Source of the DNA: an uncultured Clostridia bacterium
GTDB lineage: Bacteria; Bacillota; Clostridia; Oscillospirales; Acutalibacteraceae
NCBI GenBank assembly: GCA_937973935.1
Contig: CALJJF010000124.1
Coordinates: forward strand, 1 to 35,619
Direction: 5' to 3'
Length of the DNA: 35,619 nt
Under the pieces are notes generated by a model, which was given only the letters and a program-made list of their open reading frames with translations, did not search any database and had not been told where the DNA came from. Shown here piece by piece: positions 16,897 through 33,549 of the stretch; the first letter of the stretch is position 1; each line of letters starts with the position of its first letter. The translations under genes and the position numbers were made by a program.

Positions 16897-17181
16897 TTAT
16901 CCTCCATCGTATGATGTCGGTGATGAGGTCATAGTCAATGCCGGGGTAAGCCCAATGTGTTTTTGGATCACTGCCGAAATGTCGGCATCCGCCATGATAT
17001 TTTTCGTGGCTTCCGGCGCAGCTACGTGGTTGGTTTCTCGTATACTTTGCAACAGAGGTCGTATGTCTTTCGATTGTGCAGTGATATATTCATCAATTCT
17101 GTTCGGTTCCACACAAAAGTGATCCTGTTTCGTGTTTTTGAACTCACGTCCGCATTTCGGGCATTTCCACATTTCACCCAT
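16897..17181 (-). pseudogene. Zinc-ribbon/DUF1801 (YdhG-like) gene, apparently truncated or frameshifted
   Basis: MWKCPKCGREFKNTKQDHFC...IDEYITAQ...KHIGL matches the zinc-ribbon plus DUF1801 architecture. The ORF then ends early in ...TPALTMTSSPTSYDGG*. A shifted frame continues AYPGIDYDLITDIIRWRIKQ, which resembles the family C-terminus. Confidence 0.4.
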
Positions 17182-17197
17182 TCCACTTCTAATGGTA

Positions 17198-17668: not shown

Positions 17669-17755
17669 AATTATTCTCCGGAGTCAACATTATTTCCGGT
17701 GCTTATTCTACCATAACGGCAAACACCGAGCAAGGAAAAAGCGAGGTGAATTCAA

Positions 17756-18310: not shown

Positions 18311-18409
18311 TTGCTTCACCTCTTTCTATCTCAATACAGACCTCGAAAAGAATCCAATCCCATGGACTGATTTCCTCTAACAAAAAAATCGCACTATATT
18401 TTGTATCAA

Positions 18410-18817
18410 CTAAATTGTCTTAAATTTATAATATCCCCACCACTCGGGAACAAGTTCGATTAACCTTACAGTCTTTCTTGTTTCATAGTCCAGTAAAAAC
18501 TCTATATCCTTGCTGTCTTTGTCCAACTGCATCATATATTCACGGCAAACACAGCAAGGAGGACCTACTTGACCATTGGGCATTATAGCGAGAACTTTAT
18601 CAATTTGACTTTCACCGTTGGTAATCATGTTTGCTATTGCGTTTCTCTCCGCACACATGCCCAAAGATGAATCGGTATCAATACAAACCCCGACATATAT
18701 GTTTCCTTTTTTCGTTAGTATAGCGGCAGAAACTCCGCCAGCATCTATAAACGGAGAAATCTCTCTGCTGTTATGCACTTTTTTTGCCTCATCAAATAAC
18801 TTCTCCCAGATATCCAT
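18410..18817 (-). CDS. Small cytidine-deaminase-fold zinc enzyme (CDA / blasticidin-S-deaminase-like)
   Basis: The zinc ligand motifs are MCAERNAI (C/H-A-E) and PPCCVCREYM (PCxxC). The 135-aa size fits the tetrameric CDA/BSD class. Confidence 0.78.
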   Translation of the reverse strand: MDIWEKLFDEAKKVHNSREISPFIDAGGVSAAILTKKGNIYVGVCIDTDSSLGMCAERNAIANMITNGESQIDKVLAIMPNGQVGPPCCVCREYMMQLDKDSKDIEFLLDYETRKTVRLIELVPEWWGYYKFKTI

Positions 18818-18926
18818 ACGTCTATATCCTTTCTATTTGCATTTATCATTCCTTGACATCAAGACAACCGTCTCAACATGGAACGATAGCATCAGATTGA
18901 TGTCTGGTATGTGTTTTTGGTTTTAT

Positions 18927-19030
18927 CCGTTCGTGGGAATATGTCCATAGCGATTTTTAGGGGCGTTCCCGTTCGTGGAAACATATCAACATTATATTGC
19001 ATCTCTTGTCCGTTCTCGGGAACATGTCGA
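18927..19030. repeat. Three phased direct repeats of about 21 bp
   Basis: CCGTTCGTGGGAATATGTCCA at 18927, CCGTTCGTGGAAACATATCAA at 18969 and CCGTTCTCGGGAACATGTCGA at 19010. The spacing is 42 and 41 bp. Each unit carries a GTTC-N4-GAA(C/T)-like core. Confidence 0.75.
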
Positions 19031-19083
19031 TAATTCGCACATTTATTGCTGCCATTCAATTATCCACCCAATTCTCGTATTGC

Positions 19084-20478
19084 TTAATCTTCATTATCTA
19101 CATCTGCCGTTTGCGGTTTCGGTAAATAGTAATACTTACCTTCCTTAATGATAAGTTCCACATCTTCAGCATAGACATCCCTCGGCTGTTCCGTTTTTCC
19201 AATTATGTGGTTGGCTTGAGAGGCTATCTCTTGGGCTATAGCTTTCTTGATAGCTTTATAATTGTGCTTTTCGTCTATCCAACCCAACGGAATCGAAATA
19301 ACAGCTTTAATACCTGTCTTTGCAACCCGTTCCTTACTCAAATCAATCCTTAACGCATCGACCTGCTTGCTGTGCCATTCGCTTAGAAGTGTTCGGGTTT
19401 GCTCCGACATCTCTGTGTATTTATTGTAAAGAGCGTAGCTTTGTTCAGTTGATATAGTGCATTTCCCCAATAAATACGTTAGCTTGCTGATTTCTTCAAG
19501 AACTGCCGCTAACACATTTTGAAACCCTACTAAGGTTTTTAACTCCTCAACTACGGACTCGTATTCTTTATAGTCGGGGTTGGGGTTCTTTTTCGTAATG
19601 TCAGTTATCGTAATATTCACTTGACCCAAGAGTTCGGTGGCGGTAGCCTTTATACCCTCTAAGGCAGAAAGTTTAAGTTTTCGCTGACTGTCGTCCTCCA
19701 ATATCTCTGTGCTAAACTGAGAAATCTCGCTGACGAGGGTTATCACGGACAGGATTCGGCTCTTAAACTCTCTATCTTGAAAGTCACTGATTTTACTGAT
19801 GCTTTTCGTCAATGCTTCTAACTTAGAATCGATTAAGGACATATAGTATTGACCGACAACCAGAGAGGCAACATTCATCACATTGGCCGCCACGTTTGCT
19901 ACCTTGGCTGTTTTCGCAATATTTGCTGGAACAACTTCACTCGCTTTCTGTGCCGTCACAGGGACAAGATTTGCTTGACCTTTTATTCCTTTTGCACCGT
20001 GAAAAATAGCCCGCTTTGCACCTTCCATTGCTTGGGAATCAGTAAGTTTGGCACCGGCAGGAATAACAGCCCTATAAATATTTCCAGATTGCAGTGCTTG
20101 GTTAGTCTTCTGTATCGCGACGTTTGCAGCTTTTGCGGTTTGTTGCAACGCAGCGTTCGTGGCATTGGAGGTCAGTGTTCTGTTTGCTATTTCGGCAACA
20201 GCAGGAAGCGTCTGTGATATGCGGGCAACTACCGAGCAGTCTTTGATTTCGACCAGACTGTTTTCATCAATCTGCGTTGTGGTAGGTAGGAGTTCAATTG
20301 GTATAGATAATTCTCCAACATGCTTTCCCGTAGCTGCCAACATATCGGTTGGCGTAGCTCGCTCTGTGCTTTCAGCATTGCAAAGAACAGAGCTTGTCCT
20401 TTTTCGCAAGAAAACAACCACAACCGCGATTGCGGTTATGGCAATTACCACTAATGCTATCGGCAATATGTATTCCAT
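19084..20478 (-). CDS. Membrane-anchored coiled-coil protein (unknown family); last gene of the defence-like operon
   Basis: The 464-aa ORF has RBS AGGAG 9 nt upstream. N-terminal TM helix YILPIALVVIAITAIAVVVVFL. An Ala/Asn/Val-rich segment includes a second hydrophobic stretch, VANVAANVMNVASLVVGQYYM. A long helical C-terminal region follows. Confidence 0.7.
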   Translation of the reverse strand: MEYILPIALVVIAITAIAVVVVFLRKRTSSVLCNAESTERATPTDMLAATGKHVGELSIPIELLPTTTQIDENSLVEIKDCSVVARISQTLPAVAEIANRTLTSNATNAALQQTAKAANVAIQKTNQALQSGNIYRAVIPAGAKLTDSQAMEGAKRAIFHGAKGIKGQANLVPVTAQKASEVVPANIAKTAKVANVAANVMNVASLVVGQYYMSLIDSKLEALTKSISKISDFQDREFKSRILSVITLVSEISQFSTEILEDDSQRKLKLSALEGIKATATELLGQVNITITDITKKNPNPDYKEYESVVEELKTLVGFQNVLAAVLEEISKLTYLLGKCTISTEQSYALYNKYTEMSEQTRTLLSEWHSKQVDALRIDLSKERVAKTGIKAVISIPLGWIDEKHNYKAIKKAIAQEIASQANHIIGKTEQPRDVYAEDVELIIKEGKYYYLPKPQTADVDNED

Positions 20479-20631
20479 CGCATATTACTCCTGTCTTTAG
20501 GTCTTAAATTTCGGCTTAATCAGGTCATAACTTCATAACCGTCCACGCACCTGCGTCCGCTATATCGTAAAATGGGTAATCCTCGTAAGCAGCGGGGATT
20601 GTAAGGCAGAGATCGATGAGGTCTTGTCGGG

Positions 20632-23600
20632 TCATACATTTTCGTCCTCCACTCCAATTTGACAACGTACTGTGTAGTTGTCTCCCGTGATGCTAAATTT
20701 CGAATTGCAAAAACGATCTTCGCCATCGGCATAATTAAACAAATCTGAGAGCCGATAGATTTTACGTTCGTCCTCGCTCATTACAGCGGTCACTAAAACG
20801 ACCTCATATTGTTGCGGATGTGCTTCTGCAAAGTTCAATTCATTTTCTGTAATTACAAATGTAATTCCCGTCCCCGCAGCGGACTTAATTTCAACATAAA
20901 TGGTTTCGCCGTTTTCGTTGGAATACTTGAGGTCGTAACCCAAACCGCCGATACCATCAGGATTGATTCCTTCTTTTTTTGCGTTTTCCGAAACCCATAC
21001 AACATTCTTGAAGGTTGATTTCATTTCTTCATATACGAGTTTTTCAGCAAAGGCTCCCCAATCTGAAATATTACGTTCTCGCTTCATTCCAGCCATGCGG
21101 CTTCCATTACGTGCTGTGTGACCTGTGTTATTGGCAGAGTTGTTTGGCGGAGCAACAACGTTAACCGATATTATCGGTACGGATGCTACGGAAGCTGTGT
21201 TTAAGATTCTTGCTTCTTGCGCTTGTGCATTGTCAATGTCAGTCTTTCTGGCATTATAGGCCTTGTTCAACTCTTCAAGATTACCAAAGTACAATAAACT
21301 CTCCAACTCTGAATCAACGAGCATATCATTTACAATTGACATTTCCTTATCTTGCACAAAGATTTCTTTATTCGCTTTCCATGCCATGTTTGCGTCCTCG
21401 TCAGACTCTGACGAAATCACGCTCCCAAACTGTTGTGTAAACTCAGCTTCCCAATCGTAATTGATGCTATTTGGAGGGTTGAAAGGGAATGCCTTGTATT
21501 TATCCAATTGCTTTAAGAATGTGCGCTGCACGCTAACAGGTTCGTTTTTAAGCATTGCAAACAATCCGTTTTTATATGAATTACTTTCGTCATTTGCCCG
21601 TTTTTGTAAACACTCAAGATAAAAAGGAGTCAAGTCTACGATGGCCTCGGATTTTTCATTGAAATCATCGACATCAACTTTTAAGCCGCGTAAGACATTA
21701 ATAAGTGACACTGCATTTGCCGTTGAGTTAAAATCAGCAAAATTTATAGAGTCAATGTCAGGTTCAATTGATGCAGTGCTGTCCTCACCGGCAATAAGGA
21801 TGCAAGCCGAAAGAAACATTTCTTTTTCGGATTGTGTACGATTGAGGATATCACGAGACCTTTCGAGAATGCTTAAATCATCATAATCGTGTATTATTAA
21901 AGCGTTCCGATTGTGCGGTTCCTTCTCATATAAGGAGCGTACATACCCAAAAAGAGTGTCGTCCTGAATATCAATAGCCGTCATAAAAAGTTCAGCAATT
22001 GCGGAACAGAAATCAACATTACTTTTTAGCTGTTTCAAACTTCCACCATTTCTTGGAGCCTGAACATAAACACAGTTTCTACCCCTGATATATGAACTGT
22101 CAGCTAGTACAACCTCGCCTTTGCCGTAGTCGGCTTTTATGTAGGTACACAAACGAACCTTCAACGCCTTCACGGTAGAGATTTCACTTTGCTTTGCAGT
22201 ATCGACACGCGAGCAAAAAGCATAACAAATGAAATCGTTAAAATCTTGTTCAAAGGCAATGCTCTCTGGGTGAATGCCTGGCTCTCCGATTACAGACCCC
22301 TTGACCTTTAATGGTGACACTCCAAAATATCTCTTGATATTTTCTTGGCTTTGCCTGCTTGGTATGGCAATCAAGTTAAAGTCCTTTAGTATTTCACGAC
22401 TTACCGTCTTTTCATTGAGATAGTGAACATCCTTTATTGCCAAATATGTTTTTGAGGATTTACAATACACATTTCCACTTTGTAAAAACTCGCGACATTT
22501 TGCGTTGTTAGGATCGAAGTTCCTCAGACCGCCTGACTTCAAAATAGATGTATAAAGAGCCTTGCTTATCTCGCCACCTTCATCAGCTACAGGCAATGCC
22601 AATAACAATGAATATAGCGTTCCTGTATCTAAGTCTGAATAGTCTGATGCAACACCTATCTGCTCCAAAATATCCTGAACGGCATTTGCTTCTGCGATTC
22701 TGCGGTTATAATTATCGATGAATAAGTCCAAATTAGGCGCGACAACTATAGGAGCAAATAATGTGCCAATTTTACTCACAAACAAACATTGCTTCGGAGA
22801 ATATCGGACACCCTCAACCTCTATCCAATTGCTTGTTGCAAAGGTAAAACGAAGGTGCGAAGCTAACTGCTCGCCGCTGATAGCTCTAAATTTTTGTTGA
22901 TACAAATTATCGACGTAAGCACGGCTTGTGCTTGGCTCATAATCAGATAGCAATTGTCGGAGATTCTCGTCATGTCGAATCCAATCAATTATGCTTTTGG
23001 TATTTGCTTTCTCAAGAATTTCATCAAGACGTTCAACCGTAGCAATTTCTACGTATCTGAGAGATGCACTGCGAAATTCCTGTTCGTTATGATAACGGTT
23101 GTCCTCTGCGAGCAGCGGGTATTTTTTTATACTTGTATATATGAGTTCTCTATAAGCTTCTGGAATTGGACGAATTGTCATTTTAGTTTTTCGCGGGAAC
23201 TGGGCAACGCCTAACGCCAACAAAAATTCTCTATACTGCTGTTTTGTCAATTCGGTTAAGGCTATTCGCTTGGGTATTGAAACAAAAAGGCTATCGTTGC
23301 TATCAAACAAATTTTCAGTTACTTCATTATCGAACTCTTGCCCGAAATATAATTCGTTTGCGTTTTTCGCTTCGCCTTTGCGATTTATCAATGGAATCGT
23401 CGTTAATGCAGACATTTCGTTTTTCAAAACGTTTGCTTTCCATAGCTTCCATAACCACTCGACAGTGTCTTCATAGCACCCTCTAGTTTTCTTGCTCGTT
23501 TGGTGTGCACGGCTTCTTAAGCGAGATATGACCGCGTTAATAATGTTTCCAAGGTTATATTCACGAACATTGAATTTCGAGAGCTCAATGGCAAGGCCTC

Positions 23601-25221
23601 TCAATGTGCTTTCTTTCCCCTGCAAGTCGCGCAAAGCACTCACGAGGTCTTTATTCATGAAAACGATTTTCGTAAAATCAGGTGGAGACGAAAAGTCAAC
23701 ATTTTCTGCTGGTAAGAATACTTGTTGACCATCGGTTACAGCATTGCCGCTACTATCTAATACAAAATGCGGCTTATTCTCTGAGGAAATCTCGTTACGG
23801 TACTCATTGATAAATGTAAGCCATAAAGCTGCCCTCTCTCGGATTTGAAGAGTCGGTAAAATAGAATTGATTCCCGTCGTTATATCACTGTATTGATACC
23901 GCATACCTACTTTTCTATGCTTTGCAATGGATTTAATCATGGTTCTTATCGCAGTATTATCCGTTGGAGGCATTAGTGACGAGAATGCATCTCCACTTAA
24001 AAAATCCGCAATATCACTATCATAGAATCGTGGTTTTTCAGCAAATTTAATATATTTGTTGCCCACCGTAGGAAAAACATTGCTCGCAGCAACTGCTTCC
24101 AGATAATAGTCTTTGATAACGAAGTCGTCCCAACTCAAGTCAATTGGGAAATCCCCTACCGTTGATAGCAAGGCGAGCGGGGCGTAATTAACGCTTTCAG
24201 TGGTTGTTATCAAGGCAAGATCAACAAGCGTATCACAAATAACTTTGAGTATGTGTTTATTAGCCTCTGTTTCATCGAGGTGGTTTCTGTCTGCATTTAA
24301 GTCAAACGTTGCATGAACGAGAGCATGGACAGGAAATTGTACCTTTGTCTTGAAATAGCTGTATAAAACGTCCGGAACAACAGACATATCCTCTTTGTAG
24401 GCGACCATCACGCCATATTTTTGTTTCTCAAAACTGCCCTCTCGGGATAGGATAGACCAATTGTCGGTTTCAACGGTTTCGCCATTTCTGTTTGTCGTAA
24501 TATGTATATCGATAATACCATTTTCACGTTCCGAAGGGGTCTTTTTATAAACAAAAAAATCTCCACTATATTCTATCGTCAGCTTCTCCAGCTTCTCTAA
24601 AAACAGAAGGGTTTTTGAATTGATTTGTTGTAGCTGACCAATAACTTTTTCAACAACATCAGATTTCAATTCGACCTCGATTACTGTGTCATATTCTTTA
24701 TTATTCAAGGGCGAAATTAATCGAGGAGCAACAAGTGTCGCAATCTGCACATCATCATGTGTTTTACAAAACTCAGCAACATCATCATTTTCAAGCAATT
24801 CAACCAGCGTTGCACGAGCATAGATTTCGGAAAATTCAACGGACAAATCACCACTATAAATGCGGACACGGTCTGCCCAGTTTAGTATGGAACGAAAACC
24901 AGTACCTTTGTTGCCGATATATTCATTTTTGTTATGCTTCGGGCTGAGATTTGAATACATCAATGAAATAAAACCTTCAAAAGAGAATACGCTTCCGTTA
25001 TTGCTTATTGTCAGTATATTACCTTTCAAAACAATAGAAACAGAGCGGTCATCTGTACCGCCGAGTTCGTCGACTGCGTTTTGAAGCAGTTCTAATAGTT
25101 CCCGACCATGATAACCGCGAATTTCAGCCGTTTCTTTTCTGTAATCCGATAATATAAGGTTAGGGTCAAGAATATAACCTTTTTTCCTAATCTCTATTTG
25201 ACGTGCCACTTTATCGTTCAT
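20632..25221 (-). CDS. Giant NO-VEIN-like protein: N-terminal GHKL (Bergerat-fold, sacsin/MORC-like) ATPase, long unassigned middle, C-terminal DUF3883/NOV_C nuclease-fold domain
   Basis: The 1529-aa ORF has RBS GGAGAA. The N-box is ELLELLQNAVDE at residues 41-52, and the G2-like box is IGNKGTGFRSIL. The C-terminus reads AEKLVYEEMKSTFKNVVWVSE...GLGYDLKYS...IYVEIKS...FVITENELNFAE...YEVVLV, which matches the DUF3883 pattern GYDI.S...IEVK...S.nE...A...Y.ly.V. Confidence 0.8.
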   Translation of the reverse strand: MNDKVARQIEIRKKGYILDPNLILSDYRKETAEIRGYHGRELLELLQNAVDELGGTDDRSVSIVLKGNILTISNNGSVFSFEGFISLMYSNLSPKHNKNEYIGNKGTGFRSILNWADRVRIYSGDLSVEFSEIYARATLVELLENDDVAEFCKTHDDVQIATLVAPRLISPLNNKEYDTVIEVELKSDVVEKVIGQLQQINSKTLLFLEKLEKLTIEYSGDFFVYKKTPSERENGIIDIHITTNRNGETVETDNWSILSREGSFEKQKYGVMVAYKEDMSVVPDVLYSYFKTKVQFPVHALVHATFDLNADRNHLDETEANKHILKVICDTLVDLALITTTESVNYAPLALLSTVGDFPIDLSWDDFVIKDYYLEAVAASNVFPTVGNKYIKFAEKPRFYDSDIADFLSGDAFSSLMPPTDNTAIRTMIKSIAKHRKVGMRYQYSDITTGINSILPTLQIRERAALWLTFINEYRNEISSENKPHFVLDSSGNAVTDGQQVFLPAENVDFSSPPDFTKIVFMNKDLVSALRDLQGKESTLRGLAIELSKFNVREYNLGNIINAVISRLRSRAHQTSKKTRGCYEDTVEWLWKLWKANVLKNEMSALTTIPLINRKGEAKNANELYFGQEFDNEVTENLFDSNDSLFVSIPKRIALTELTKQQYREFLLALGVAQFPRKTKMTIRPIPEAYRELIYTSIKKYPLLAEDNRYHNEQEFRSASLRYVEIATVERLDEILEKANTKSIIDWIRHDENLRQLLSDYEPSTSRAYVDNLYQQKFRAISGEQLASHLRFTFATSNWIEVEGVRYSPKQCLFVSKIGTLFAPIVVAPNLDLFIDNYNRRIAEANAVQDILEQIGVASDYSDLDTGTLYSLLLALPVADEGGEISKALYTSILKSGGLRNFDPNNAKCREFLQSGNVYCKSSKTYLAIKDVHYLNEKTVSREILKDFNLIAIPSRQSQENIKRYFGVSPLKVKGSVIGEPGIHPESIAFEQDFNDFICYAFCSRVDTAKQSEISTVKALKVRLCTYIKADYGKGEVVLADSSYIRGRNCVYVQAPRNGGSLKQLKSNVDFCSAIAELFMTAIDIQDDTLFGYVRSLYEKEPHNRNALIIHDYDDLSILERSRDILNRTQSEKEMFLSACILIAGEDSTASIEPDIDSINFADFNSTANAVSLINVLRGLKVDVDDFNEKSEAIVDLTPFYLECLQKRANDESNSYKNGLFAMLKNEPVSVQRTFLKQLDKYKAFPFNPPNSINYDWEAEFTQQFGSVISSESDEDANMAWKANKEIFVQDKEMSIVNDMLVDSELESLLYFGNLEELNKAYNARKTDIDNAQAQEARILNTASVASVPIISVNVVAPPNNSANNTGHTARNGSRMAGMKRERNISDWGAFAEKLVYEEMKSTFKNVVWVSENAKKEGINPDGIGGLGYDLKYSNENGETIYVEIKSAAGTGITFVITENELNFAEAHPQQYEVVLVTAVMSEDERKIYRLSDLFNYADGEDRFCNSKFSITGDNYTVRCQIGVEDENV

Positions 25222-25336
25222 TTATACGTTCTCCAAACCCCTTTTTTCCCTATAATGTGCTAAAAACTCATCACTCACAATAATTGAAGTTCATTCGTCG
25301 TTAGATGATTTCTCCTATAAAAATTATTTCGTATAC

Positions 25337-26284
25337 TTATTCCCCGGCAGGCAAGACAAAATATGAGGTAGGTTGCATAAGCCATCCATCCGACTCAATT
25401 ACAGACTTTGCCGGATTTCGGATTACAGTTGGGCTGTAGTCGGGTTGGTTAAGGCTGTCGGCATTAACCAAGTAAAGGTAGTATTTATCTCCATACAACG
25501 TAGCTACTTCAATTTCATTCTTAGACCAGTAAAAGTGTGGCTGCCCGGTATAGGATTTAACTTCGATGAACCGGTCGTACTCAGAGGATGCCTCTCCTTC
25601 AAACGAAACTATGTCGAAACCAGCCGAAACGTCAATATCAGATATCCTTTTTATCTTTTGGACTATCGGACTGCTCGCAAGACGTGTCGTTTCATATTTC
25701 AGCACATACTCCTCGGCGGCTTCACCTTGCTGTTCTTGCTGTTCCATTTGCTTTTTCAAGGCTTCGAGAGAAAGCTTTCGCTTTGTGCTTTTTCGTACCT
25801 TGGCGAAAAGAGACTCGTAATGTTCACTAAGCTCCAATGAACCGTCTTGTCGTTCTGATAGGGCGTGAAGTTGTATAAGAACATTTCTGAAAACAGCGGC
25901 GGCAATTGGAAAGCCGTGCTTCTGAATATGGTACCTTTCTTTTAAAACGTCAAACCGCAGAGCGTTAGTATCAAGGATTGTATCTGCTATGATTTTATTA
26001 AGGCAAGCCATACATAGCATTTCTTCAAATCCACCGCCAAGCAGGGAGTACAATTTTTTGCCCTCATCTGTTGGTATTAGTGAATTTTCAGAAACACTAA
26101 TAAAGCCCAAGTATTCAAAAAAGGTTACCGCACCGCTAAAGTTAATTCGCATATCGTTCACAAATGAACATATCTGCCGTGCCGATTCCCTCTTGATTTC
26201 GTCACCTTTGAGGATGGTACTGGCAAAGTGCAGAATTCCCTGCGAATCACCTATTGTATTAATCCGCCTTAGTTCTTCTTGCAT
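25337..26284 (-). CDS. DUF3883/NOV_C-domain protein with an unassigned N-terminal half
   Basis: The 315-aa ORF has the C-terminus GEAAEEYVLKYETTRL...SAGFDIVSFEG...RFIEVKSYTG...FYWSKNEIEVATLYGDKYYLYLV. Its start overlaps the 3' end of the SNF2 gene by 26 nt. Confidence 0.72.
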   Translation of the reverse strand: MQEELRRINTIGDSQGILHFASTILKGDEIKRESARQICSFVNDMRINFSGAVTFFEYLGFISVSENSLIPTDEGKKLYSLLGGGFEEMLCMACLNKIIADTILDTNALRFDVLKERYHIQKHGFPIAAAVFRNVLIQLHALSERQDGSLELSEHYESLFAKVRKSTKRKLSLEALKKQMEQQEQQGEAAEEYVLKYETTRLASSPIVQKIKRISDIDVSAGFDIVSFEGEASSEYDRFIEVKSYTGQPHFYWSKNEIEVATLYGDKYYLYLVNADSLNQPDYSPTVIRNPAKSVIESDGWLMQPTSYFVLPAGE

Positions 26285-28226
26285 AATCCCTTAGCACCGC
26301 CTTTATATCATCATCTCCACCATCATCAAGGTTGTTGTCAAAGAGTGGGATGGGCATACTCTCAATAATCTCCAGCAACCTACGCTCCTTTTCGGCAAGC
26401 CTCTCGTGAATGGTTAGGTCGACAGACTCAGCAGAAAGCAAATAGTAATAGTTAGTTACAACATCGTCGCTTAATCCATAACGGTGAATTCTGTCTTTGG
26501 ATTGTAAAAAATGCGCGGCATTAAAAGAACGCTCTAAGTAAATAGCGTTGTGACAAGCCTTATGAAGAGAAATCGACTCAGCCACGGCAAATGGGTTTGC
26601 GATTATCACCTTATAAGGGCAATCATCCTTATGGAACTCCTTGACTATGGCTTCTCGGGTAATTGAGTATTCATCGTCATCCTCGCTTATGCCATCACCC
26701 GCAACCGGCGTAGCTCCGTACAATATTCGAGAATCAATGTCATTTGAAGCAAGATAATCTCGAAGCATTTCTATGTTCTTTATATAGCACGCCCAGACAA
26801 TAGCCTTTTCGCCACGACCAATGATTTCGCGTAAGATATCCTTGACAGCTATATATTTTGCAGGAACTTCTGCCTCTGCATACCGTAATATCTCGTTAAG
26901 CATTTTCGTGTCGTCCTGAACCGTATCAAAGTCTACATCTTCAACATCAGCAAACTCAGATAATGGCTGACGAAGAAGCGCAGGATTAGTTGATGCCTGC
27001 ATAAGTCTAATCAGCCTTGCTCTAACCAGTTCGTTTTGAAAACGTTGGTCACGACTATTGGCAATGTCAAAAATATACTTCCTCTCAATATAATCGTATA
27101 TACGCCGTTGTGTTTCACCCATCTCCACTACCATTGGTGGGTTATTGACAGCGGGTGGAATGCCAAGGTCGCTCTTCCTAATCCTTATAAAAAACGGGGA
27201 TATGGAATTAAGCAATGAATCAACCCTTGGGTCATTTGGAGTCCTCGACATATCTTTCAACTGCCCAATATGAAAACGGACAATTTCTTTCGTCGGCCAG
27301 ATAAACTTAAACAAATTGTACAAGTCTTCATAACCGTTCGGTGCAGGTGTACCAGTGAGTACGACTCTCGCCTTACAATCCTGTGCCAATTCCATTATGC
27401 TCTGAGCAATGATACCCCCATTGGTATTCTTGATTTTGTGTGCTTCGTCAAGCACAACCATTACCTTATGCTTTTTGAGGAAGAATAGAAGTTCTTGTGT
27501 AAGGGACATAACCGAGGCATAGGAAATCAGCGTCAACTCGGCGGGATTATTCTCATAAAAATATTGTTTTTTATGATCTATTTGAAGTTTACCGGTTAAA
27601 CGCTTTGAAGTTGGTTTTACACCAAAGCACTCCTCATATTCCAGTTCCCAAGGACCAAAAGCGTTTATGGGGCCAATTATCAGCAGTCTGTCTACTTTTC
27701 GAGGATGATCATCCGGCAAATTCTTGAGGTATGTGTAAGCTCCAAAAACAATGCTGGTTTTTCCCGCACCCGGAACTGAAAAGTTGCAAGCATTTTGCGA
27801 GAACGCTAAATGATACGCTGAAAGCATCTGCAAATTGTAGAGGGTTCGAGTGGGCATATTTGCAACGAGCGCATCTTGAAATGCTTGAAATTCGCTAACA
27901 TTGCAATGGTTGTTGCGAATGTCCATAGCTTTAGACGAAAACTCAGCAAACTTGCTCTCTTCCTCGATGTAAGACTGGATACCCTCATTTGCTTCCCCAG
28001 AGATTTCAACATCGCATTTTGCATAACCAGCTGCCGTCCGCACCCTGTCGATACTTTTGTTCAAACTGTCGGTAATAGAAATATAAATCACACTGTCAGA
28101 GAGGATATAGTCGGTATTGTCCTTAAGGAAACGGGCAGCGCGGCGACTTTCTAAGATTTGTCCTACATCCCCAGTGACTATGAGCCGATTGTCGGCTGTA
28201 TTTGAATCAATGTGTAATATGCCCAT
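26259..28226 (-). CDS. SNF2-family (SF2) helicase/translocase with an approximately 130-aa unassigned N-terminal domain
   Basis: Motif I VPGAGKTS, motif II VVLDEAHKIKN, motif III LTGTPAPNGYEDLYNLFKFIWP, and helicase-C with motif VI FLQSKDRIHRYGL. Confidence 0.88.
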   Translation of the reverse strand: MGILHIDSNTADNRLIVTGDVGQILESRRAARFLKDNTDYILSDSVIYISITDSLNKSIDRVRTAAGYAKCDVEISGEANEGIQSYIEEESKFAEFSSKAMDIRNNHCNVSEFQAFQDALVANMPTRTLYNLQMLSAYHLAFSQNACNFSVPGAGKTSIVFGAYTYLKNLPDDHPRKVDRLLIIGPINAFGPWELEYEECFGVKPTSKRLTGKLQIDHKKQYFYENNPAELTLISYASVMSLTQELLFFLKKHKVMVVLDEAHKIKNTNGGIIAQSIMELAQDCKARVVLTGTPAPNGYEDLYNLFKFIWPTKEIVRFHIGQLKDMSRTPNDPRVDSLLNSISPFFIRIRKSDLGIPPAVNNPPMVVEMGETQRRIYDYIERKYIFDIANSRDQRFQNELVRARLIRLMQASTNPALLRQPLSEFADVEDVDFDTVQDDTKMLNEILRYAEAEVPAKYIAVKDILREIIGRGEKAIVWACYIKNIEMLRDYLASNDIDSRILYGATPVAGDGISEDDDEYSITREAIVKEFHKDDCPYKVIIANPFAVAESISLHKACHNAIYLERSFNAAHFLQSKDRIHRYGLSDDVVTNYYYLLSAESVDLTIHERLAEKERRLLEIIESMPIPLFDNNLDDGGDDDIKAVLRDYARRTKAD

Positions 28227-28241
28227 ACTTCACCCACCTAA

Positions 28242-29528
28242 CTATCGTAAAATTTCTCCATATTCCTTAACCTTCTTAGCGATTTCATCAAGGTATTCCT
28301 TTATTCCAGGATCATCTTTGAAAGAATCTTGGCTGGTATCAACCGCAGATATGGCCTCCCATGCTTTCTGAAGCAACTTGATTGGTTCTGCGGCTTGCTG
28401 CTTGTTATTCAATTTATCACGTGAGCGTAGAAAGTTCTCATTCAGTTTTTCACCGACAGCTTCCTTCCATGCGTTATCCCGTGCACGGAGCAGCCGTCCG
28501 ACATCCCCTCCGGGGTTATCGCGAATAATTTCATCAACGGACTTCTCACGAACACCCTCAACCGTCTCAAAATGAGCATCCGCAAATTGCCGCCAAATTT
28601 CTTCATTAGAGAAAAAGCTGGCATCTGTGTTGTTTTTGCTCGGTTTTCTGATGATATCACGAAAATCCTGCTGGTCTAAACCCAAACGAATATAGTCGAA
28701 TGCAATACTTTTTAGGTCAGAAACATCCGCTTCAATGTCATAACCCCACATCTTGGAAACCCCACCGGCGGCATAGCCACGCAAAGCACTGTCCAGCTTT
28801 TGAAAGGAGTCCTCTCTTGTGTCAAGAACTGTATATATTCCCGTGTAACCGTAGGTATCCAAGTATTCATCCATCATCTTAAGGACATCCAGATACATCT
28901 TAACATCTGCAAGTTTAACACCCATAAAGTTGGCAATTTCATTGTTAGAGAATCCCTCACCCGCTAAGTCACCCGCCTTGAGGTATTTTTCTATAGGACC
29001 ATAGTCTACCTTTGCATCCTCGCCCATCTGATATGTAGTCTCAAGGCGTAAAATTTCTTTCCTATCTGCATCTATAGGGAGGATGATAGCTTCGAAGAAC
29101 TGCGTGTGCTGTTTGAGATTGGCAGCAACGCTGTCATCACGCCAAATCCTATTTAATAGGCTGGCACGTCGGTTTCCATCAATTATCTTTCCGTCGGCAG
29201 TGACAATACCATACCGCTGTTGGTGGTCTTCAAGGAGGCTCTGTTTTGTTCGCTCGTTTGCTTCTACCTTAGATTCCCACAAAAATTTTTCAATAAGGGC
29301 AACATCCGCCGGACTATCAGGGTCAAGTGGATGATTCTGACGCTCGTATGATTTGACCACACTCCCTATGCGCCCATTGTACGGGTTGTATGTTAGTATG
29401 CTCAACGGAATTCGATAGGCGTTGAACGTCGTGCGTTCGCCGTGATATGTAAGCGTTATCCCTGTCATACAAGGCTGTGTTGAATCCTGAATCCTCTTGA
29501 GTTCAGCTTTTCTCTGTTCTGCATTCAT
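28242..29528 (-). CDS. ParB/sulfiredoxin-fold N-terminal domain protein with a long helical C-terminal region
   Basis: YRIPLSILTYNPYNGRIGS...YGIVTADGKIIDGNRRASLL matches the ParB N-domain pattern (I.l..l..np.N.R ... G.iiDG.rR). RBS AGGAGG is present. About 300 further residues are unassigned. Confidence 0.65.
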   Translation of the reverse strand: MNAEQRKAELKRIQDSTQPCMTGITLTYHGERTTFNAYRIPLSILTYNPYNGRIGSVVKSYERQNHPLDPDSPADVALIEKFLWESKVEANERTKQSLLEDHQQRYGIVTADGKIIDGNRRASLLNRIWRDDSVAANLKQHTQFFEAIILPIDADRKEILRLETTYQMGEDAKVDYGPIEKYLKAGDLAGEGFSNNEIANFMGVKLADVKMYLDVLKMMDEYLDTYGYTGIYTVLDTREDSFQKLDSALRGYAAGGVSKMWGYDIEADVSDLKSIAFDYIRLGLDQQDFRDIIRKPSKNNTDASFFSNEEIWRQFADAHFETVEGVREKSVDEIIRDNPGGDVGRLLRARDNAWKEAVGEKLNENFLRSRDKLNNKQQAAEPIKLLQKAWEAISAVDTSQDSFKDDPGIKEYLDEIAKKVKEYGEILR

Positions 29529-29543
29529 TGATTAATCCTCCTG

Positions 29544-30473
29544 TTAAAGATAGTATTTTACTATATCACTGATAGTATCAAGCGAGCGAAGATTAAGCAA
29601 ATAATCCGAACATCTATGGATTTTTTCCAAGTCAGCCCGCCGACTTACCCATCCCGCTCCATCAACAACATTAATAAACACAAGCTTTTGCTTGGTGGGC
29701 TTCCCGTTATTTAACTCTCGGATTTTGGAAGCTGTTGTTTCTGCAGTTTTTGCATAATCACTTTGACTGCTTGACGTTGTGATATTGCAAGTAATATCTA
29801 TCAAAAGGCGCGGGGTTTTCTCAGTTGGCACTGCAATCCCGATAGTTCTTCCTATTGATTGAACATTGCCTTTGATAACATATGTCAAACCAGTCTGGTC
29901 ACATATTTCTACAATTTTATCATGCACCGCTTTAAAAAAACTGTCACCTATTCGATTGCTATATTTACCCTCTAAGCCACGCTTAACTAACCGCCTTATA
30001 TCATCTGAGTTTCCTATTCTTCCAACCGTGGATACGTTTATCTGAAAATTTTCGCGATAATATGTTGGAATTAAATTTTTGTATTTTTCAAGAACTGCTC
30101 CATTCAAAAACAGTTCACACACTTCGTCCATAAATTCAGGGTGTTCTATCATTTCCCTTTGGATTTTTGATAGTGACCACTCACTCGTAGGCATATGCTT
30201 CTTTTGAATGCGCGACATTGTAATTATTCTCTTAAAACGCTCTTCCGAAATATTCAAGAGACTTGTGAGGTTATGGAGAGCTTTTTTATTGTCTCGCACA
30301 TATTTTCTAATCCCATCCATTGTTGCTATGCTTGGTGGTATTGATTGAAGTTCCTTAATGTCGGCTTCAGCCAAATTCTCGAATTCTTTTTCCAAATCCG
30401 AGTCAAGGTAGAACATAGTCGCAGTCTTTATAAATTCCTCAACTGTAAGTGCCTTTGGTTTTTGCTGGTTCAT
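29544..30473 (-). CDS. Hypothetical 309-aa protein translationally coupled to the methyltransferase (candidate endonuclease or specificity partner, unproven)
   Basis: The start overlaps the methyltransferase stop as TAATG, a 1-nt overlap. The sequence is protein-like, but I cannot place a catalytic motif by eye. Confidence 0.6.
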   Translation of the reverse strand: MNQQKPKALTVEEFIKTATMFYLDSDLEKEFENLAEADIKELQSIPPSIATMDGIRKYVRDNKKALHNLTSLLNISEERFKRIITMSRIQKKHMPTSEWSLSKIQREMIEHPEFMDEVCELFLNGAVLEKYKNLIPTYYRENFQINVSTVGRIGNSDDIRRLVKRGLEGKYSNRIGDSFFKAVHDKIVEICDQTGLTYVIKGNVQSIGRTIGIAVPTEKTPRLLIDITCNITTSSSQSDYAKTAETTASKIRELNNGKPTKQKLVFINVVDGAGWVSRRADLEKIHRCSDYLLNLRSLDTISDIVKYYL

Positions 30474-31828
30474 TATTTTTCGCCTCCATCTATTTCAGAA
30501 AGGTATTGTGCAGCCAACCGCTCACTAACCGCTTTTATCACAGGGACGCAGACAGTATTACCAAGTAAATCGAATCCCTGTTTCTTTCCTTTCTGAGTAT
30601 CTTCAAAATCACACAAGCTATAATCTTCCGGGTATCCAAATAGCCTAAGTCCCTCACGCAGAGTCAATTTTCTAATTCCACAATTATCGATAACTCCAAT
30701 AGTTGACATATCCATTGCTACTAACGTGGGTGTAACAGCTTCAGGATTCAGAATTCGACTAAATTCAAAACTCAGTTTTCCTGTTACTATATTATATCCC
30801 TTTGGCTTTGTCACATCTGGAATACGCTCATATAATGTTCTGTCAGATGTAGAATTTTCGCTTTCGACCCTCTTTTTAGGGTGTTCCAAAACTAAATACC
30901 CCTGTTCCACCAGTTTGTCTAACATTAACTGCAAGTCCTCAACATTATGGAACGTGCGTATTTGCTCGGCTGTCAAAGGCATGCCGTCCATCCAGTCAAT
31001 CCCAATTTTCTCAGCCCAATGTTTTTTCCTTCGTTCCAACAACAATGCATTCAGCAAGTTTTGCTCTTTTTGGGTTACGTGCCCTCTTATGCCAATGTCC
31101 CAACTGTGAATATTGTTTTCTCCACCACGCTTGTCCTTTATAGCCTTACCATAAAGTTCTTCTGGCTTAAACTTTTTGAATAGCTTCTTTGAAAATTCCC
31201 CATTCAAGGTTTTGCACCCCTTTTCCATAACATCAGAAAAGGTGGATTTTTTCTGTGGGAAATTCTTCAATGATACCTTTTCCTTTTTTGTACCTACAAT
31301 GTATATACGTCTCCTGGCTTGGGCTAATCCAAAATCCTGAGCGTCAAGTATATCCCAAGTAACAGTATAATCCAATTCTTTCTCTAATTTGTGAAGTATT
31401 GTTTTTAATGTTCTTCCTGGTTTAACAGTGTTGTTTTCCAAGTCATGAACAACCAACCCCTCCACGTTTTCAAGTAAAAAACCATACGGTTTCTTATCTC
31501 TGATAATTCTCTCAATTTCAAAAAATAACGTCCCACGAGTGTCGGCAAAACCGCGTTGTTTTCCTGCTACACTGAATGCTTGGCAAGGAAAACCGCCCAG
31601 TAGAAAATCAAAATCAGGTATATCTTCAGATTTTATTTGTGTAATATCACCTTTGATGTTCTGTTCATTAAAGTACTTTTTATAAGCCTTAACCGCTGAT
31701 TCTTTAATTTCGGATGTAAAAACACATTCCGTTTTAAAGCCTGCTTGCTTGAAAGCTTGCTCAAAACCAAGTCGAATTCCTCCCATCCCAGCAAACAGAT
31801 CTATGAATTTTATTGTTTTATTTGTCAT
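30473..31828 (-). CDS. dcm: DNA (cytosine-5)-methyltransferase
   Basis: Motif I FIDLFAGMGGIRLGF, motif IV GGFPCQAFSVAGKQRGF, motif VI LLENVEGL, motif VIII QARRRIYIVG, motifs IX/X REGLRLFGYPEDY...LGNTVCVPV. A long TRD lies between motifs VIII and IX. RBS GGAGG 9 nt before the ATG at 31828 favours that start over the track start at 31876. Confidence 0.93.
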   Translation of the reverse strand: MTNKTIKFIDLFAGMGGIRLGFEQAFKQAGFKTECVFTSEIKESAVKAYKKYFNEQNIKGDITQIKSEDIPDFDFLLGGFPCQAFSVAGKQRGFADTRGTLFFEIERIIRDKKPYGFLLENVEGLVVHDLENNTVKPGRTLKTILHKLEKELDYTVTWDILDAQDFGLAQARRRIYIVGTKKEKVSLKNFPQKKSTFSDVMEKGCKTLNGEFSKKLFKKFKPEELYGKAIKDKRGGENNIHSWDIGIRGHVTQKEQNLLNALLLERRKKHWAEKIGIDWMDGMPLTAEQIRTFHNVEDLQLMLDKLVEQGYLVLEHPKKRVESENSTSDRTLYERIPDVTKPKGYNIVTGKLSFEFSRILNPEAVTPTLVAMDMSTIGVIDNCGIRKLTLREGLRLFGYPEDYSLCDFEDTQKGKKQGFDLLGNTVCVPVIKAVSERLAAQYLSEIDGGEK

Positions 31829-32066
31829 GCAAGAATTCCTCCGTTTTTGAAGTGTCTTGAACATCCTCGCCAGCAATGTCCATTATATCTCCAACGTTAC
31901 AATTCAGTGCCGTACATATTTTAGCGAGAATTGCCGTGGTGACGTTTTCGTTGCGACCGAGTTTAGCAATGGTAACAGCACTTATATTGGCTGCACTTTG
32001 AAGATCTTGCTTCTTCATATCCATATCTATCAACAGTTTCCACAATTTTTTGTAATTGACTTCCAT
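31818..32066 (-). CDS. XRE-family helix-turn-helix protein (controller-like first gene of the operon)
   Basis: MEVNYKKLWKLLIDMDMKKQDLQSAANISAVTIAKLGRNENVTTAILAKICTALNCNVGDIM is a typical short Cro/C1-type HTH. RBS AAAGGAG lies 8 nt before the ATG at 32066. The 3' end overlaps the methyltransferase start by 11 nt. Confidence 0.85.
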   Translation of the reverse strand: MEVNYKKLWKLLIDMDMKKQDLQSAANISAVTIAKLGRNENVTTAILAKICTALNCNVGDIMDIAGEDVQDTSKTEEFLHDK

Positions 32067-32111
32067 ACACAAATCTCCTTTGCATAGTTATAAGAACAGC
32101 CACACCTCTGT

Positions 32112-32140
32112 AGTATAGCACTTTTCAAAGAATAAATCAA
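32112..32140 (-). promoter_or_regulatory. Candidate sigma-A promoter of the defence-like operon
   Basis: On the minus strand, TTGATT at 32140-32135, a 17-nt spacer and TATACT at 32117-32112, about 45 nt upstream of the HTH start. Confidence 0.5.
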
Positions 32141-32289
32141 TATTTAGCAAGCGGAAGTAAATAATATTTAAGCAATGCTTTAGTTTTATTATACTGGTAA
32201 TAATTTTTCAACTTCTTTAAGTTTAGGGATTGATTTTTTGAATAAGCTATGTTAATATGTATATGAACACATTAACAGGAGGTGCAATT

Positions 32290-32667
32290 ATGAATAAACA
32301 ATCTTTCGGAAGTTTCGTAAGAGCAAGACGTGAATTGCTTGGCAAATCGCTTAGAAGTGTTGCCGGCGAAATTGATATGGCTCCAGCATACCTGAGTGAT
32401 ATAGAAAAAGGAAATAGATGGCCACCAGTCAAATACCTTGAAAAGTTAGCCGAAGTCCTCTGCATTACACAGGAGGAGCAACTCAGCCACTTTTATGATT
32501 TGGCAGGTGAAATTCGCGAGGGGAGCTATCCAGACCTAACCGAGTATATTGGGAAAACCGACATTGCTCGAGTAGCATTACGAAAAGCTAGAGACCACAA
32601 TATCTCAGAAGAAAAGTGGCAACAGTTTATCGACAAGATAATTACCCCCGAAAAGAAGGGGGATTGA
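32290..32667 (+). CDS. XRE-family HTH repressor (ImmR-like)
   Basis: MNKQSFGSFVRARRELLGKSLRSVAGEIDMAPAYLSDIEKGNR is an HTH_3-type domain. GGAGG lies 7 nt before the ATG at 32290. An ImmA-type peptidase gene follows directly. Confidence 0.85.
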   Translation: MNKQSFGSFVRARRELLGKSLRSVAGEIDMAPAYLSDIEKGNRWPPVKYLEKLAEVLCITQEEQLSHFYDLAGEIREGSYPDLTEYIGKTDIARVALRKARDHNISEEKWQQFIDKIITPEKKGD

Positions 32668-32670
32668 CTA

Positions 32671-33396
32671 TTGAAACTAAGTTACGAACAAGAACCAAAC
32701 GGCATGTATAAACTTCACAAAACTGATTTCGACGACATCGCCTTGATGTTGTTACGGGAATATCTCGCTTCAGTGGTTGACAGTCCGGGAGAGGTTGACA
32801 TCAACTATCTTATCAAGGACTGTCTATACCTTGATGTATACTGCAAGAACTTGTCTGCGAACAAATCCATTCTTGGGTTAGTTGCTTTCGAAGATACAAC
32901 TATACCCTGTTATAATCTTCATTTTGAACCCACAACGTTCGATTTAGTTGCAGGAAATATTGTCCTCGATATGTCTTTAAGTGGTCAACGCCAGTTGCCC
33001 AGACGCAGATTCACACTCGCTCATGAACTTTCCCACTGGATTCTTCACCGCAGCTATCATTCGCCTTCTAATCAAGTGTTCGCACTTAAGAAAGTAGGCT
33101 ATTTGCCATGTGGCGAATCTGAGATTTCTATTAAAAAGAAGGCTTTGGTCACTGAGTCTGATAAAGAGGAGTGGCAAGCGAATTCACTTGCGGCTGCAAT
33201 ACTTATGCCGAAATTTGCTTTCTTGCACTGTGCCTATCAGGAACTTCGCCAGCATTTCGGAACAGGTGCGGCGGTTTTTAGCGAGACTGTTGACCATGAT
33301 AAATACAAAGCTGCTGTCGGGAACATTGCTGCTGTCTTTAATGTTTCGTTTCAAGCCACAGAGATTCGCCTTGATCAGTTTAACCTTATAGCATAA
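32671..33396 (+). CDS. ImmA/IrrE-family zinc metallopeptidase
   Basis: HEXXH motif in FTLAHELSHWILH, plus the downstream EEWQANSLAAAILMP typical of the COG2856/ImmA family. TTG start 3 nt after the XRE stop; an alternative ATG is at 32704. Confidence 0.82.
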   Translation: MKLSYEQEPNGMYKLHKTDFDDIALMLLREYLASVVDSPGEVDINYLIKDCLYLDVYCKNLSANKSILGLVAFEDTTIPCYNLHFEPTTFDLVAGNIVLDMSLSGQRQLPRRRFTLAHELSHWILHRSYHSPSNQVFALKKVGYLPCGESEISIKKKALVTESDKEEWQANSLAAAILMPKFAFLHCAYQELRQHFGTGAAVFSETVDHDKYKAAVGNIAAVFNVSFQATEIRLDQFNLIA

Positions 33397-33549
33397 GCTG
33401 AAACATACGGCTTCACATTAGTGTTGTCGTTTTTTTAGACCGTAGTGTTCATATGGATATATACAAATTAACACCATGAAAGGAATGCCAACACGAATGC
33501 CGCAGTTAATCGTGGCAATACATTAAAAATCACAAAGTGAGGATAAAAA

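Follow-up and report, generated by a model that had tools for sequence, protein, structure and literature searches.

Do the eight co-directional minus-strand genes at positions 19084 to 32140 of contig CALJJF010000124.1, from an uncultured bacterium of the Acutalibacteraceae (Clostridia), form one defence system, or do they belong to several? A first-pass annotation made from the sequence alone had proposed the former, as a 13-kb, methylation-linked defence candidate of eight genes. Our analyses of the window (the whole stretch of 35,619 nucleotides) lead to a different answer. The block is likely to be a defence island on an ImmR/ImmA-type element, composed of a multi-gene cassette (25337-32140), a Tiamat gene (20632-25221) and the gene of an unrelated transmembrane (TM) protein (19084-20478). 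Judging from sequence comparisons, the cassette is apparently an undescribed, widespread defence cassette that resembles restriction-modification (R-M) systems and is linked to C5 methylation. Its conserved core, as delineated by these comparisons, comprises a C5 methyltransferase (MTase), a ParB/KorB-like protein, an SNF2 ATPase and an effector, to which the close relatives that we call clade A add the 309-residue protein RE309 and a small helix-turn-helix (HTH) protein. The features of the block are the following, from its upstream end.

32112..32140, minus strand: sigma-70-like promoter candidate, TTGATT-17-TATACT with a TG extension (consensus match 9/12)
31818..32066, minus strand: XRE/HTH_26 regulator, 82 aa, C-protein-like (Pfam HTH_26, 6.6e-18)
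30473..31828, minus strand: C5 cytosine DNA methyltransferase, 451 aa from ATG 31828 (Pfam DNA_methylase, 2.6e-78; TIGR00675, 4.4e-101)
29544..30473, minus strand: RE309, 309-aa protein of predicted BanI/DpnII-family restriction-endonuclease fold (Pfam DpnII, 5.5e-8, above cutoff)
28242..29528, minus strand: ParB/KorB-like protein, 428 aa (AlphaFold2 model and Foldseek)
26259..28226, minus strand: SNF2-family ATPase/translocase, 655 aa (Pfam SNF2-rel_dom, 6.6e-20)
25337..26284, minus strand: effector, 315 aa (Pfam NOV_C, 1.1e-14)
25250..25336, minus strand: module boundary between cassette and TmtA block (end of similarity to locus L009 and start of similarity to locus L089)
20632..25221, minus strand: TmtA (Tiamat), 1529 aa, GHKL/sacsin-like N-terminus and C-terminal NOV_C (PADLOC TmtA model)
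20525..20635, minus strand: YjbR-family remnant, 36 codons, within the 153-nt gap that follows tmtA (comparison with L089)
19084..20478, minus strand: TM464, 464 aa, a single TM helix at the N-terminus plus a long helical stretch (hydropathy)

Co-occurrence and module boundaries

We scanned one genome per GTDB species, retrieving relatives of the ParB-like protein with a peptide pattern of its DGNRR box. They occur in 313 species, from the Bacillota, Bacteroidota, Proteobacteria, Spirochaetota, Saccharibacteria, Omnitrophota and Anaerolineae, and in a Methanolobus archaeon. Eighty loci were taken with 10-kb flanks, and co-occurrence was scored by tblastn and hidden Markov model (HMM) searches with the window proteins in the 60 non-redundant loci that had enough flank. 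A C5 MTase is encoded beside the ParB-like gene in all 60 loci, SNF2 and the effector in 59/60 each, and RE309 in 33/60, all of the close clade. TmtA and TM464 were found in none of the other ParB-like loci (0/60 for both). Gene order and spacing are constant across the cassette loci, and identities to the window proteins covary with that of the ParB-like protein (r=0.96 for SNF2, 0.96 for RE309, 0.88 for the effector and 0.78 for the MTase). Look-ups seeded with RE309 (n=3) returned the full cassette each time; in the 60-locus set as well, all RE309 homologues (33/33) are followed by the ParB-like, SNF2 and effector genes. This sample covers close homologues of RE309, its distant relatives lying outside it.

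The co-occurrence test across genomes, which the first-pass annotation had itself proposed, thus gives strong support to an MTase/ParB-like/SNF2/DUF3883 cassette and refutes the eight genes as a conserved unit. In spirit, the initial idea holds for six of the genes; it fails for the other two, since TmtA and the TM gene do not co-occur with the others and the TmtA block is exchanged separately. The object of interest is smaller, 25.3-32.1 kb, yet much better supported than a guess from a single locus.

Two loci delimit the cassette on its downstream side. In L009, its closest relative, 76% nucleotide identity extends over 25350-33468 and TmtA is missing; the similarity stops at 25350, 13 nt beyond the effector stop codon. 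In L089 and L090, a TmtA-YjbR-TM472 block shares 97% nucleotide identity with window positions 18851-25249, and a type I R-M system (HsdM-HsdS-HsdR) replaces the cassette upstream. Identity to L089 begins at 25249, which places the breakpoint 28 nt ahead of the TmtA start codon. As the L009 and L089 breakpoints both fall within the 115-nt gap between the effector gene and tmtA, we take this gap as the module boundary. It contains no terminator-like hairpin, so that read-through into tmtA is possible.

On sequence evidence, the 1529-aa gene is an ordinary member of the named Tiamat system, separate from the cassette. The protein aligns with PADLOC model PDLC03964 (TmtA) over its entire length (E=0, 1124 bits, residues 2-1521 on positions 10-1535 of 1538), so the statement that the block holds no named system was wrong for this gene; no named model captures the whole gene set, Tiamat accounting for one gene. 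It also matches NF047352 at residues 40-122 (59.7 bits for a cutoff of 50) and NOV_C at 1393-1488, and its N-box ELLQNAVDE holds N48 and D51. Its GHKL/sacsin-like ATPase followed by a C-terminal DUF3883 domain is the Tiamat architecture, and this copy is in no way distinctive. A search of solved structures with TmtA yielded nothing usable. Tiamat was reportedly defined as a one-gene system by Millman et al. in 2022; it figures in DefenseFinder and PADLOC, is a routine entry in current defence surveys and is frequent in island hotspots.

The TM464 protein has a single predicted TM segment (residues ~1-29) and no family match in Pfam, PADLOC or NCBIfam. Its diverged homologues are encoded after PglZ-BrxL-Macro (BREX) or GmrSD, or have no defence gene next to them; among the contexts read, they adjoin TmtA only in the near-identical element. 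A role as a Tiamat partner was rejected on the basis of these three diverged contexts devoid of TmtA, and TM464 is, as far as sequence tells, an independent membrane-anchored protein outside both systems. The family counts 388 homologue clusters, mostly in Clostridia, and its members are mislabelled 'topoisomerase IV' or 'YoxC' in the sources. It recurs directly 3' of unrelated defence genes (PglZ-BrxL-Macro, GmrSD, TmtA) and near serine recombinases, the homologues examined being L120 7001-8296, L122 7001-8419 and L124 7001-8287. The TM464 family may itself be island-borne or defence-associated. Between tmtA and the TM464 gene, the ATG of the YjbR remnant overlaps the tmtA stop codon (ATGA). 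The YjbR gene of L089 is intact and encodes 116 aa, and the window is short by ~212 nt relative to L089; by this comparison, ~212 nt have been deleted in the window.

The eight open reading frames (ORFs) were all present in the ORF listing at the coordinates first given, and every junction described initially matched on re-reading the sequence. With the starts of the HTH and MTase genes at ATG 32066 and ATG 31828, these two genes overlap by 11 nt. The MTase and RE309 genes overlap as TAATG, 15-nt gaps separate RE309 from the ParB-like gene and the latter from SNF2, and the SNF2 and effector genes overlap by 26 nt; gaps of 115 and 153 nt follow the effector gene and tmtA, respectively.

The promoter candidate is located upstream of the HTH gene, whose divergent intergenic region measures 190 nt. 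Both the site and its spacing are as first described; this class of match is not enriched in the region (42 found for 37 expected from shuffles), which leaves position as the argument for the candidate. The absence of an intrinsic terminator inside the block was borne out. None of its intergenic gaps, those of 115 and 153 nt included, has a terminator-like hairpin in our scan, and the two minus-strand matches (20442-20417 and 25062-25044) both lie within coding sequence. Neither the promoter nor the terminator scan exceeded shuffled expectation, and they served as positional hints only. The strongest hairpin of the block (11 pairs, 6 G-C; 20417-20442, minus strand) is in the 5' coding part of the TM gene, where it overlaps the sequence encoding the TM helix, and is probably a coincidence. 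All eight genes may be co-transcribed here, as an accident of insertion.

Components and variants of the cassette

The ParB-like protein has no match in Pfam, PADLOC or NCBIfam, nor to PDB sequences. Its AlphaFold2 model (mean predicted local distance difference test score, pLDDT, of 85) nevertheless bears out the initial ParB-like call. Foldseek matches it to KorB, Noc, Spo0J and ParB with a probability of ~1.0 (E ~3e-3, TM-scores of 0.5-0.57, target-relative) over the first ~250 residues, which comprise a ParB N-domain and then an HTH region. The C-terminal part is a helical domain of unknown fold. An invariant D117-G-N-R120-R121 motif is found at the position of ParB box II in a 15-sequence alignment. 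DUF262 is more distant from the modelled fold than is the ParB/KorB/Noc group, to which the CTP-dependent ParB clamps belong. ParB-CTPase folds can bind CTP, ATP or GTP (bioRxiv 10.1101/2025.10.10.680097). There are >1,600 clusters of homologues, and those that are named are all called 'hypothetical protein'.

The SNF2 protein harbours intact motifs (GAGK156T, D260EAH, TGTP and QxxxRxxR) after an uncharacterised N-terminal domain of ~145 aa. The effector is composed of an N-terminal adaptor domain (~1-180) and a C-terminal NOV_C/DUF3883 domain of the PD-(D/E)XK type with D224 and E241-V-K243. The overlap between the SNF2 and effector genes measures 20-65 nt in 70/71 loci, and exactly 26 nt in 40; by its sequence arrangement, the effector is translationally coupled to SNF2. 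At the conserved position, the C-terminus of the effector is NOV_C in 62/67 cases and a ThsB-like TIR domain in 5/67; NOV_C and TIR effectors share homologous N-terminal domains (E 1e-10 to 1e-23). Locus L065 of Pedobacter planticolens carries one of the TIR forms. In YenY4I, DUF3883 provides the catalytic nuclease (PMC6765204). A search of solved structures with the effector profile gave nothing usable. In two Prevotella loci (L045 13198-14694 and L046 13186-14670), the protein at the effector position has ~495 aa rather than ~311, which may reflect a merger of ORFs or an additional domain at the C-terminus. A Peptidase_S24 match (1.5e-13) was obtained with one of the aligned effectors.

The MTase scores far above the TIGR00675 cutoff (338.8 bits for 100.65) and retains motifs I, IV, VI, VIII and X (FAGMGG, FPC82Q, ENV, QARRR and GNTV). 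From its sequence, it looks like an active, self-marking component of the cassette. The HTH regulator precedes the operon and is not cassette-specific: it is 66% identical to the HTH_26 protein ahead of the type I R-M genes in the equivalent slot of L089, and other cassette loci have an HTH_17 or a divergent XRE HTH in its place. Family searches upheld the first domain calls for the C5 MTase, SNF2, the XRE HTH, the two NOV_C/DUF3883 domains and the GHKL/sacsin-like N-terminus.

The 309-aa protein had been called an unknown; it is in fact a homologue of BanI/DpnII-family restriction endonucleases, as shown by its Pfam match. In its family of 33 members, RE_BanI is matched by 32/33 and DpnII by 30/33, in the C-terminal half only; the N-terminal part is a helical domain of its own, outside this similarity. 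The alignment retains acidic residues at positions 168 (E/D) and 271 (D/E), with no clear canonical (D/E)xK motif. Searches of solved structures with the single RE309 sequence and with its profile provided nothing usable. Standard tools would label the HTH-MTase-309aa segment a type II R-M system.

The cassettes fall into two clades. In clade A, defined by at least 47% identity of the ParB-like protein to that of the window, the layout is [HTH]-MTase (~450 aa)-RE309-ParB-like-SNF2-effector, or alternatively RE309-ParB-like-SNF2-effector, the MTase (~485 aa) being convergent and an XRE HTH divergent. Clade B (<47%; 39-47% in the best tblastn segment) has no RE309 and follows the layout Vsr-long MTase (535-600 aa)-ParB-like-SNF2-effector. 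Its MTase, a member of another C5 subfamily, carries a conserved extension of ~200 aa at its C-terminus and is encoded directly upstream of the ParB-like gene, often overlapping it (by 8 nt in L059). Vsr is present upstream in 6/6 distant loci tested. Two non-orthologous C5 MTase subfamilies, in two orientations, are both tied to the triad formed by the ParB-like protein, SNF2 and the effector. The extension of the clade B MTase was considered as a replacement for RE309 and set aside, hhalign finding no similarity (probability 0.1); as it has no invariant acidic or lysine residues, a fused nuclease was rejected as well. Further away, the p1 plasmid of Priestia megaterium (26% identity) carries dcm and the ParB-like gene together with a PLD-SNF2 fusion of 851 aa, in which the PLD part resembles PbeA (2e-65).

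Known systems and competing explanations

We compared the cassette with the modification-based systems that it most resembles. Hma likewise combines a Snf2 motor, a NOV_C/DUF3883 nuclease and a DNA methylase; it consists of HmaA (Snf2-NOV_C), HmaB (DUF1156 methylase) and HmaC (DUF499 ATPase), and both the Snf2 helicase and the fused NOV_C nickase of HmaA are required for defence against T4 (PMC11232893). In contrast, the motor and the nuclease of the cassette are encoded by separate, overlapping genes, its methylase is of the C5 type (PF00145), and the ParB/KorB-like protein is an addition. Pfam detected neither DUF1156 nor DUF499 in the block, and no Hma model is among the PADLOC matches listed.

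DISARM is also methylation-associated and relies on an SF2/SNF2 ATPase and a nuclease. Class 2 has the C5 methylase DrmMII with DrmA/B/C/E, and class 1 includes the SNF2 protein DrmD; the cassette MTase and SNF2 match DrmMII and DrmD partially, the latter with 52 bits for a curated cutoff of 950. No DUF1998 (DrmB), DrmC or full DrmA was detected in the block, the SNF2 C-lobe giving a weak partial DrmA match (7.5e-6).

Menshen shares the logic of the cassette, with a DNA-binding NTPase of the ParB superfamily, an ATPase that acts as transducer, and an effector whose N-terminus is constant and whose toxic C-termini are shuffled; its components are NsnA, a ParB-DUF262 sensor with QRxxxW and DGxQR motifs, the ABC ATPase NsnB and the polymorphic effector NsnC (PMC12065111). 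The ParB domain of the cassette is instead of the classical ParB/KorB/Noc type with an HTH, its ATPase is SNF2 rather than ABC, and a methyltransferase is obligatorily linked. The ParB-like protein matches neither DUF262 nor any Nsn model of PADLOC. Type III and type ISP R-M systems and DndCDEA-PbeABCD similarly direct a superfamily 2 motor and a nuclease to unmodified DNA and have a modification enzyme linked to them. A PbeA-like PLD domain occurs in the remote PLD-SNF2 variant; however, the window SNF2 has no PLD domain, and the modification is 5-methylcytosine (5mC) rather than phosphorothioate.

The first-pass annotation had noted the absence of the signature genes of BREX, DISARM, Dnd/Ssp and Dpd, and our Pfam, PADLOC and NCBIfam searches agree for the cassette. 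No PglZ or BrxC match was obtained with any of the eight proteins (Pfam, PADLOC), and of Dnd/Ssp/Dpd we found only partial DpdE matches on the SNF2 core and no other component. The cassette similarly lacks the Mod/Res proteins of type III systems and an HsdS-type specificity subunit. ARMADA, the BREX-related and Dnd-associated systems of the Aravind-lab papers, Menshen, Hma, DISARM and Druantia II were rejected on composition or HMM evidence. PADLOC-DB 2.0.0 (2023) has no match for the ParB-like protein of the window or for its distant versions, and NCBIfam 20.0 (2026) has none for the window copy. We infer that the cassette works like an R-M or Hma/DISARM-type system with Menshen-like modularity, being a member of none.

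The most serious competitor to the cassette is the view that two neighbours have come together through defence-gene clustering: an ordinary type II R-M system (HTH-MTase-endonuclease) and a methylation-independent triad. We regard it as unlikely, although it deserves attention. The order of HTH, C5 MTase and endonuclease homologue, with the TAATG coupling, is a classic type II layout, like that of systems with a controller protein (BanI/HgiCI, DpnII), and NCBI calls the homologues of RE309 'DpnII family type II restriction endonuclease'. Nevertheless, the resemblance to BanI and DpnII is restricted to one half of RE309, the triad follows RE309 at every locus examined, including all RE309-seeded loci, and a two-gene unit of MTase and RE309 on its own was not found among the RE309 contexts read. 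The identity of RE309 follows that of the ParB-like protein as tightly as given above. Clade B dispenses with RE309 and yet keeps a C5 MTase directly upstream, with Vsr, and across all 60 loci MTases of two subfamilies and two orientations have been kept beside the triad. The idea of two neighbours is thus weakened overall and still live for clade A.

Several points weigh against the cassette as we read it. The entry point to our loci was the ParB-like protein, or RE309 for three of them, so that free-standing MTase-RE309 pairs could escape. RE309 could be an ordinary type II endonuclease, in which case the MTase would be part of a classical R-M system in the close clade. The AlphaFold2 model of RE309 is poor (mean pLDDT 67, <50 over the nuclease-like half), and its Foldseek matches to BstEII and BsoBI (E ~0.1) were discarded as evidence. 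At greater distance, an Enterococcus casseliflavus plasmid (NZ_CP141641; L096 4329-10024) encodes a ParB-like protein (27% identity) and an SNF2 protein (621 aa), and its annotation shows no methyltransferase within 7 kb on either side of the pair, a case that also favours the two-neighbour view. The methylation link is therefore not universal at deep divergence, and this plasmid locus may show the ParB-like/SNF2 pair in another, or an older, role. Protection, the methylation motif, methylation-state-dependent restriction and protein-protein contacts are all things that we infer. Finally, we found no published description of the gene set, and it may have been named in very recent or closed-access work. 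In the same plasmid locus, a gene for an 869-aa HTH/sigma70_r4-like protein precedes the pair and no annotated gene directly follows SNF2.

Two further explanations are improbable, and about equally so. The first is that of an establishment or anti-restriction module, in which the MTase, with the ParB-like protein and SNF2, would methylate the incoming DNA of its own mobile element and play no part in host defence. ParB-superfamily domains, SWI2/SNF2 ATPases and DNA methylases do recur together in phages and conjugative elements, and the DarB-like methylase-SNF2 dyads and ParB domains of polyvalent proteins provide a model for such a role (PMC5512222); in addition, several of our loci are cargo of integrative and conjugative elements (ICEs) or prophages. 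However, the known dyads are adenine methylases fused in giant proteins (PMC5512222), whereas the MTases found here are always of the C5 type and encoded by separate genes. A conserved nuclease, TIR or PLD effector that is translationally coupled to SNF2 is at odds with mere establishment, as are the type I R-M system that alternatively fills the slot and the many loci on large chromosomal contigs with no transfer genes nearby. The Vsr linkage, for its part, points to constitutive methylation of the resident genome.

The second holds that the ParB-like/SNF2/NOV_C triad is an ATP-dependent, type IV-like enzyme against foreign modified cytosines, next to which the C5 R-M genes merely happen to lie. 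It draws on YenY4I, whose DUF3883 nuclease depends on 5mC or 5-hydroxymethylcytosine, and on DUF3427-DUF3883 genes that sometimes adjoin C5 MTase/Sau3AI-like R-M genes (PMC6765204), as well as on the ParB-fold domain of GmrSD, which senses modified DNA (PMC12065111). No recognisable PUA, SRA or DUF3427 reader of modified bases was found in any component, however, and with an operonic or overlapping C5 MTase at every locus, a 5mC-dependent nuclease would be toxic to its own host unless the two specificities were disjoint.

As for the eight genes as one 13-kb methylation-linked system with two motors (SNF2, GHKL) and two DUF3883 nucleases, their common direction, short junctions and hairpin-free 115- and 153-nt gaps would allow co-transcription, but such a system has next to no chance of being real given that TmtA and TM464 are absent from the other cassette loci, that TmtA is a full-length Tiamat family member whose block stands at 97% identity behind a type I R-M system with breakpoints in the 115-nt gap, and that TM464 homologues live in other contexts.

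Setting, proposed mechanism and significance

The mobile-element setting that had been suggested for the block was corroborated by divergent genes for an ImmR-like HTH protein and an ImmA/M78 peptidase beside it (32257-33396). One cassette is found in a Tn916-like ICE, between relaxase/ArdC genes and Xis/Int. Others are next to SIR2, Fic or STAND-like genes or at the edge of the Streptococcus phage Javan191 (MK448700), and 23 IMG/VR contigs harbour the cassette; some loci are beside serine recombinases. Many cassette loci belong to large chromosomal contigs with no nearby transfer genes.

An ImmR/ImmA-type pair also adjoins the type I R-M genes of L089, as in the window. In these related elements, the same slot is filled by type I R-M (L089 3135-9833) or by the cassette (window 25250-32072), and the ImmR/ImmA pairs have diverged (43% and 29% identity); the slot looks like a hotspot of cargo exchange. 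The similarity to L089 breaks off at 18851, and the mobile element may end there. In several gut metagenome contigs (L125/L126 and L129/L130, about 250-5300 and 6001-12900), a cassette with a convergent MTase lies just 3' of a TRAM/tRNA-U5-methyltransferase-like gene, and in L129/L130 genes for a serine recombinase and an AAA_21/DUF4435 ATPase stand between the two, which suggests that this neighbourhood is a recurrent integration site.

The block is more AT-rich than the zinc-uptake genes to its left (ZnuA, ABC, ABC-3 and Fur/Zur at 4.7-11.6 kb), as had been noticed at the outset, with a GC content of 0.41 compared with 0.47 for those genes; low GC starts already near 12 kb. The stretch immediately to the left of the block (12000-18850; GC 0.39) harbours accessory genes for which the cassette comparison offers no explanation: a RelA_SpoT small alarmone synthetase-like gene (13143-14132), an AraC/GyrI-like regulator gene (14366-15274), an Arr-ms rifampin ADP-ribosyltransferase-like gene (15397-16146), a cytidine/dCMP deaminase-like gene (18410-18817), and DUF2200, GNAT and DUF1697 genes.

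Returning to the cassette, several features argue for a role in defence: the swaps of the effector C-terminus (NOV_C/TIR), the PLD-SNF2 variant, the positions as defence cargo and the replacement by type I R-M, together with the two non-orthologous MTase subfamilies tied to the triad and the Vsr of clade B. We propose that the MTase would mark host DNA at its target sites. Vsr would cope with deamination of the resulting 5mC in clade B; its presence beside the MTase is expected if the resident genome carries 5mC. The ParB-like protein would bind DNA, possibly as a clamp gated by nucleoside triphosphates (NTPs), and RE309 in clade A, or the C-terminal extension of the MTase in clade B, may serve as the site reader. 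The ParB-like protein would then engage SNF2, which would translocate on unmethylated DNA and deliver or activate the effector, leading to cleavage of foreign DNA or, in the TIR variants, to a TIR response. There are precedents for ParB-fold sensors that act in an NTP-dependent manner and drive effectors, in SspE, GmrSD and, by prediction, Menshen (PMC12065111).

A more specific form of this model, which we put forward tentatively and hold to be possible rather than probable, is methylation-gated immunity: an NTP-dependent clamp of the ParB/KorB type would load on DNA that lacks the cognate 5mC, license SNF2 and fire interchangeable effectors through the adaptor domain. If so, one and the same sensor would result either in direct restriction or in a response of the abortive or signalling kind. 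To our knowledge, it would be the first ParB/KorB-type ParB-CTPase-fold switch to act as the self/non-self reader of an R-M-like system.

The block illustrates that adjacency within a defence island can mimic an operon-sized 'system'. If our interpretation is true, the cassette enlarges the small group of modification-based defences other than classical R-M (BREX, DISARM, Dnd/Ssp, Dpd, Hma, MADS) by a widespread system, with relatives in 313 GTDB species of many phyla and often carried by ICEs or prophages, with an unusual sensor/motor pair (ParB/KorB-like and SNF2) and an equally unusual, exclusive use of C5 methylation, with Vsr. Surveys undercount it, since its genes are annotated as 'hypothetical protein' plus type II R-M. 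The exchange of NOV_C, TIR and PLD on one chassis would then be a natural experiment in which a DNA-state sensor is wired to different outputs. As ICE cargo in gut Firmicutes and in streptococci, the cassette may shape gene flow and the outcomes of phage therapy.

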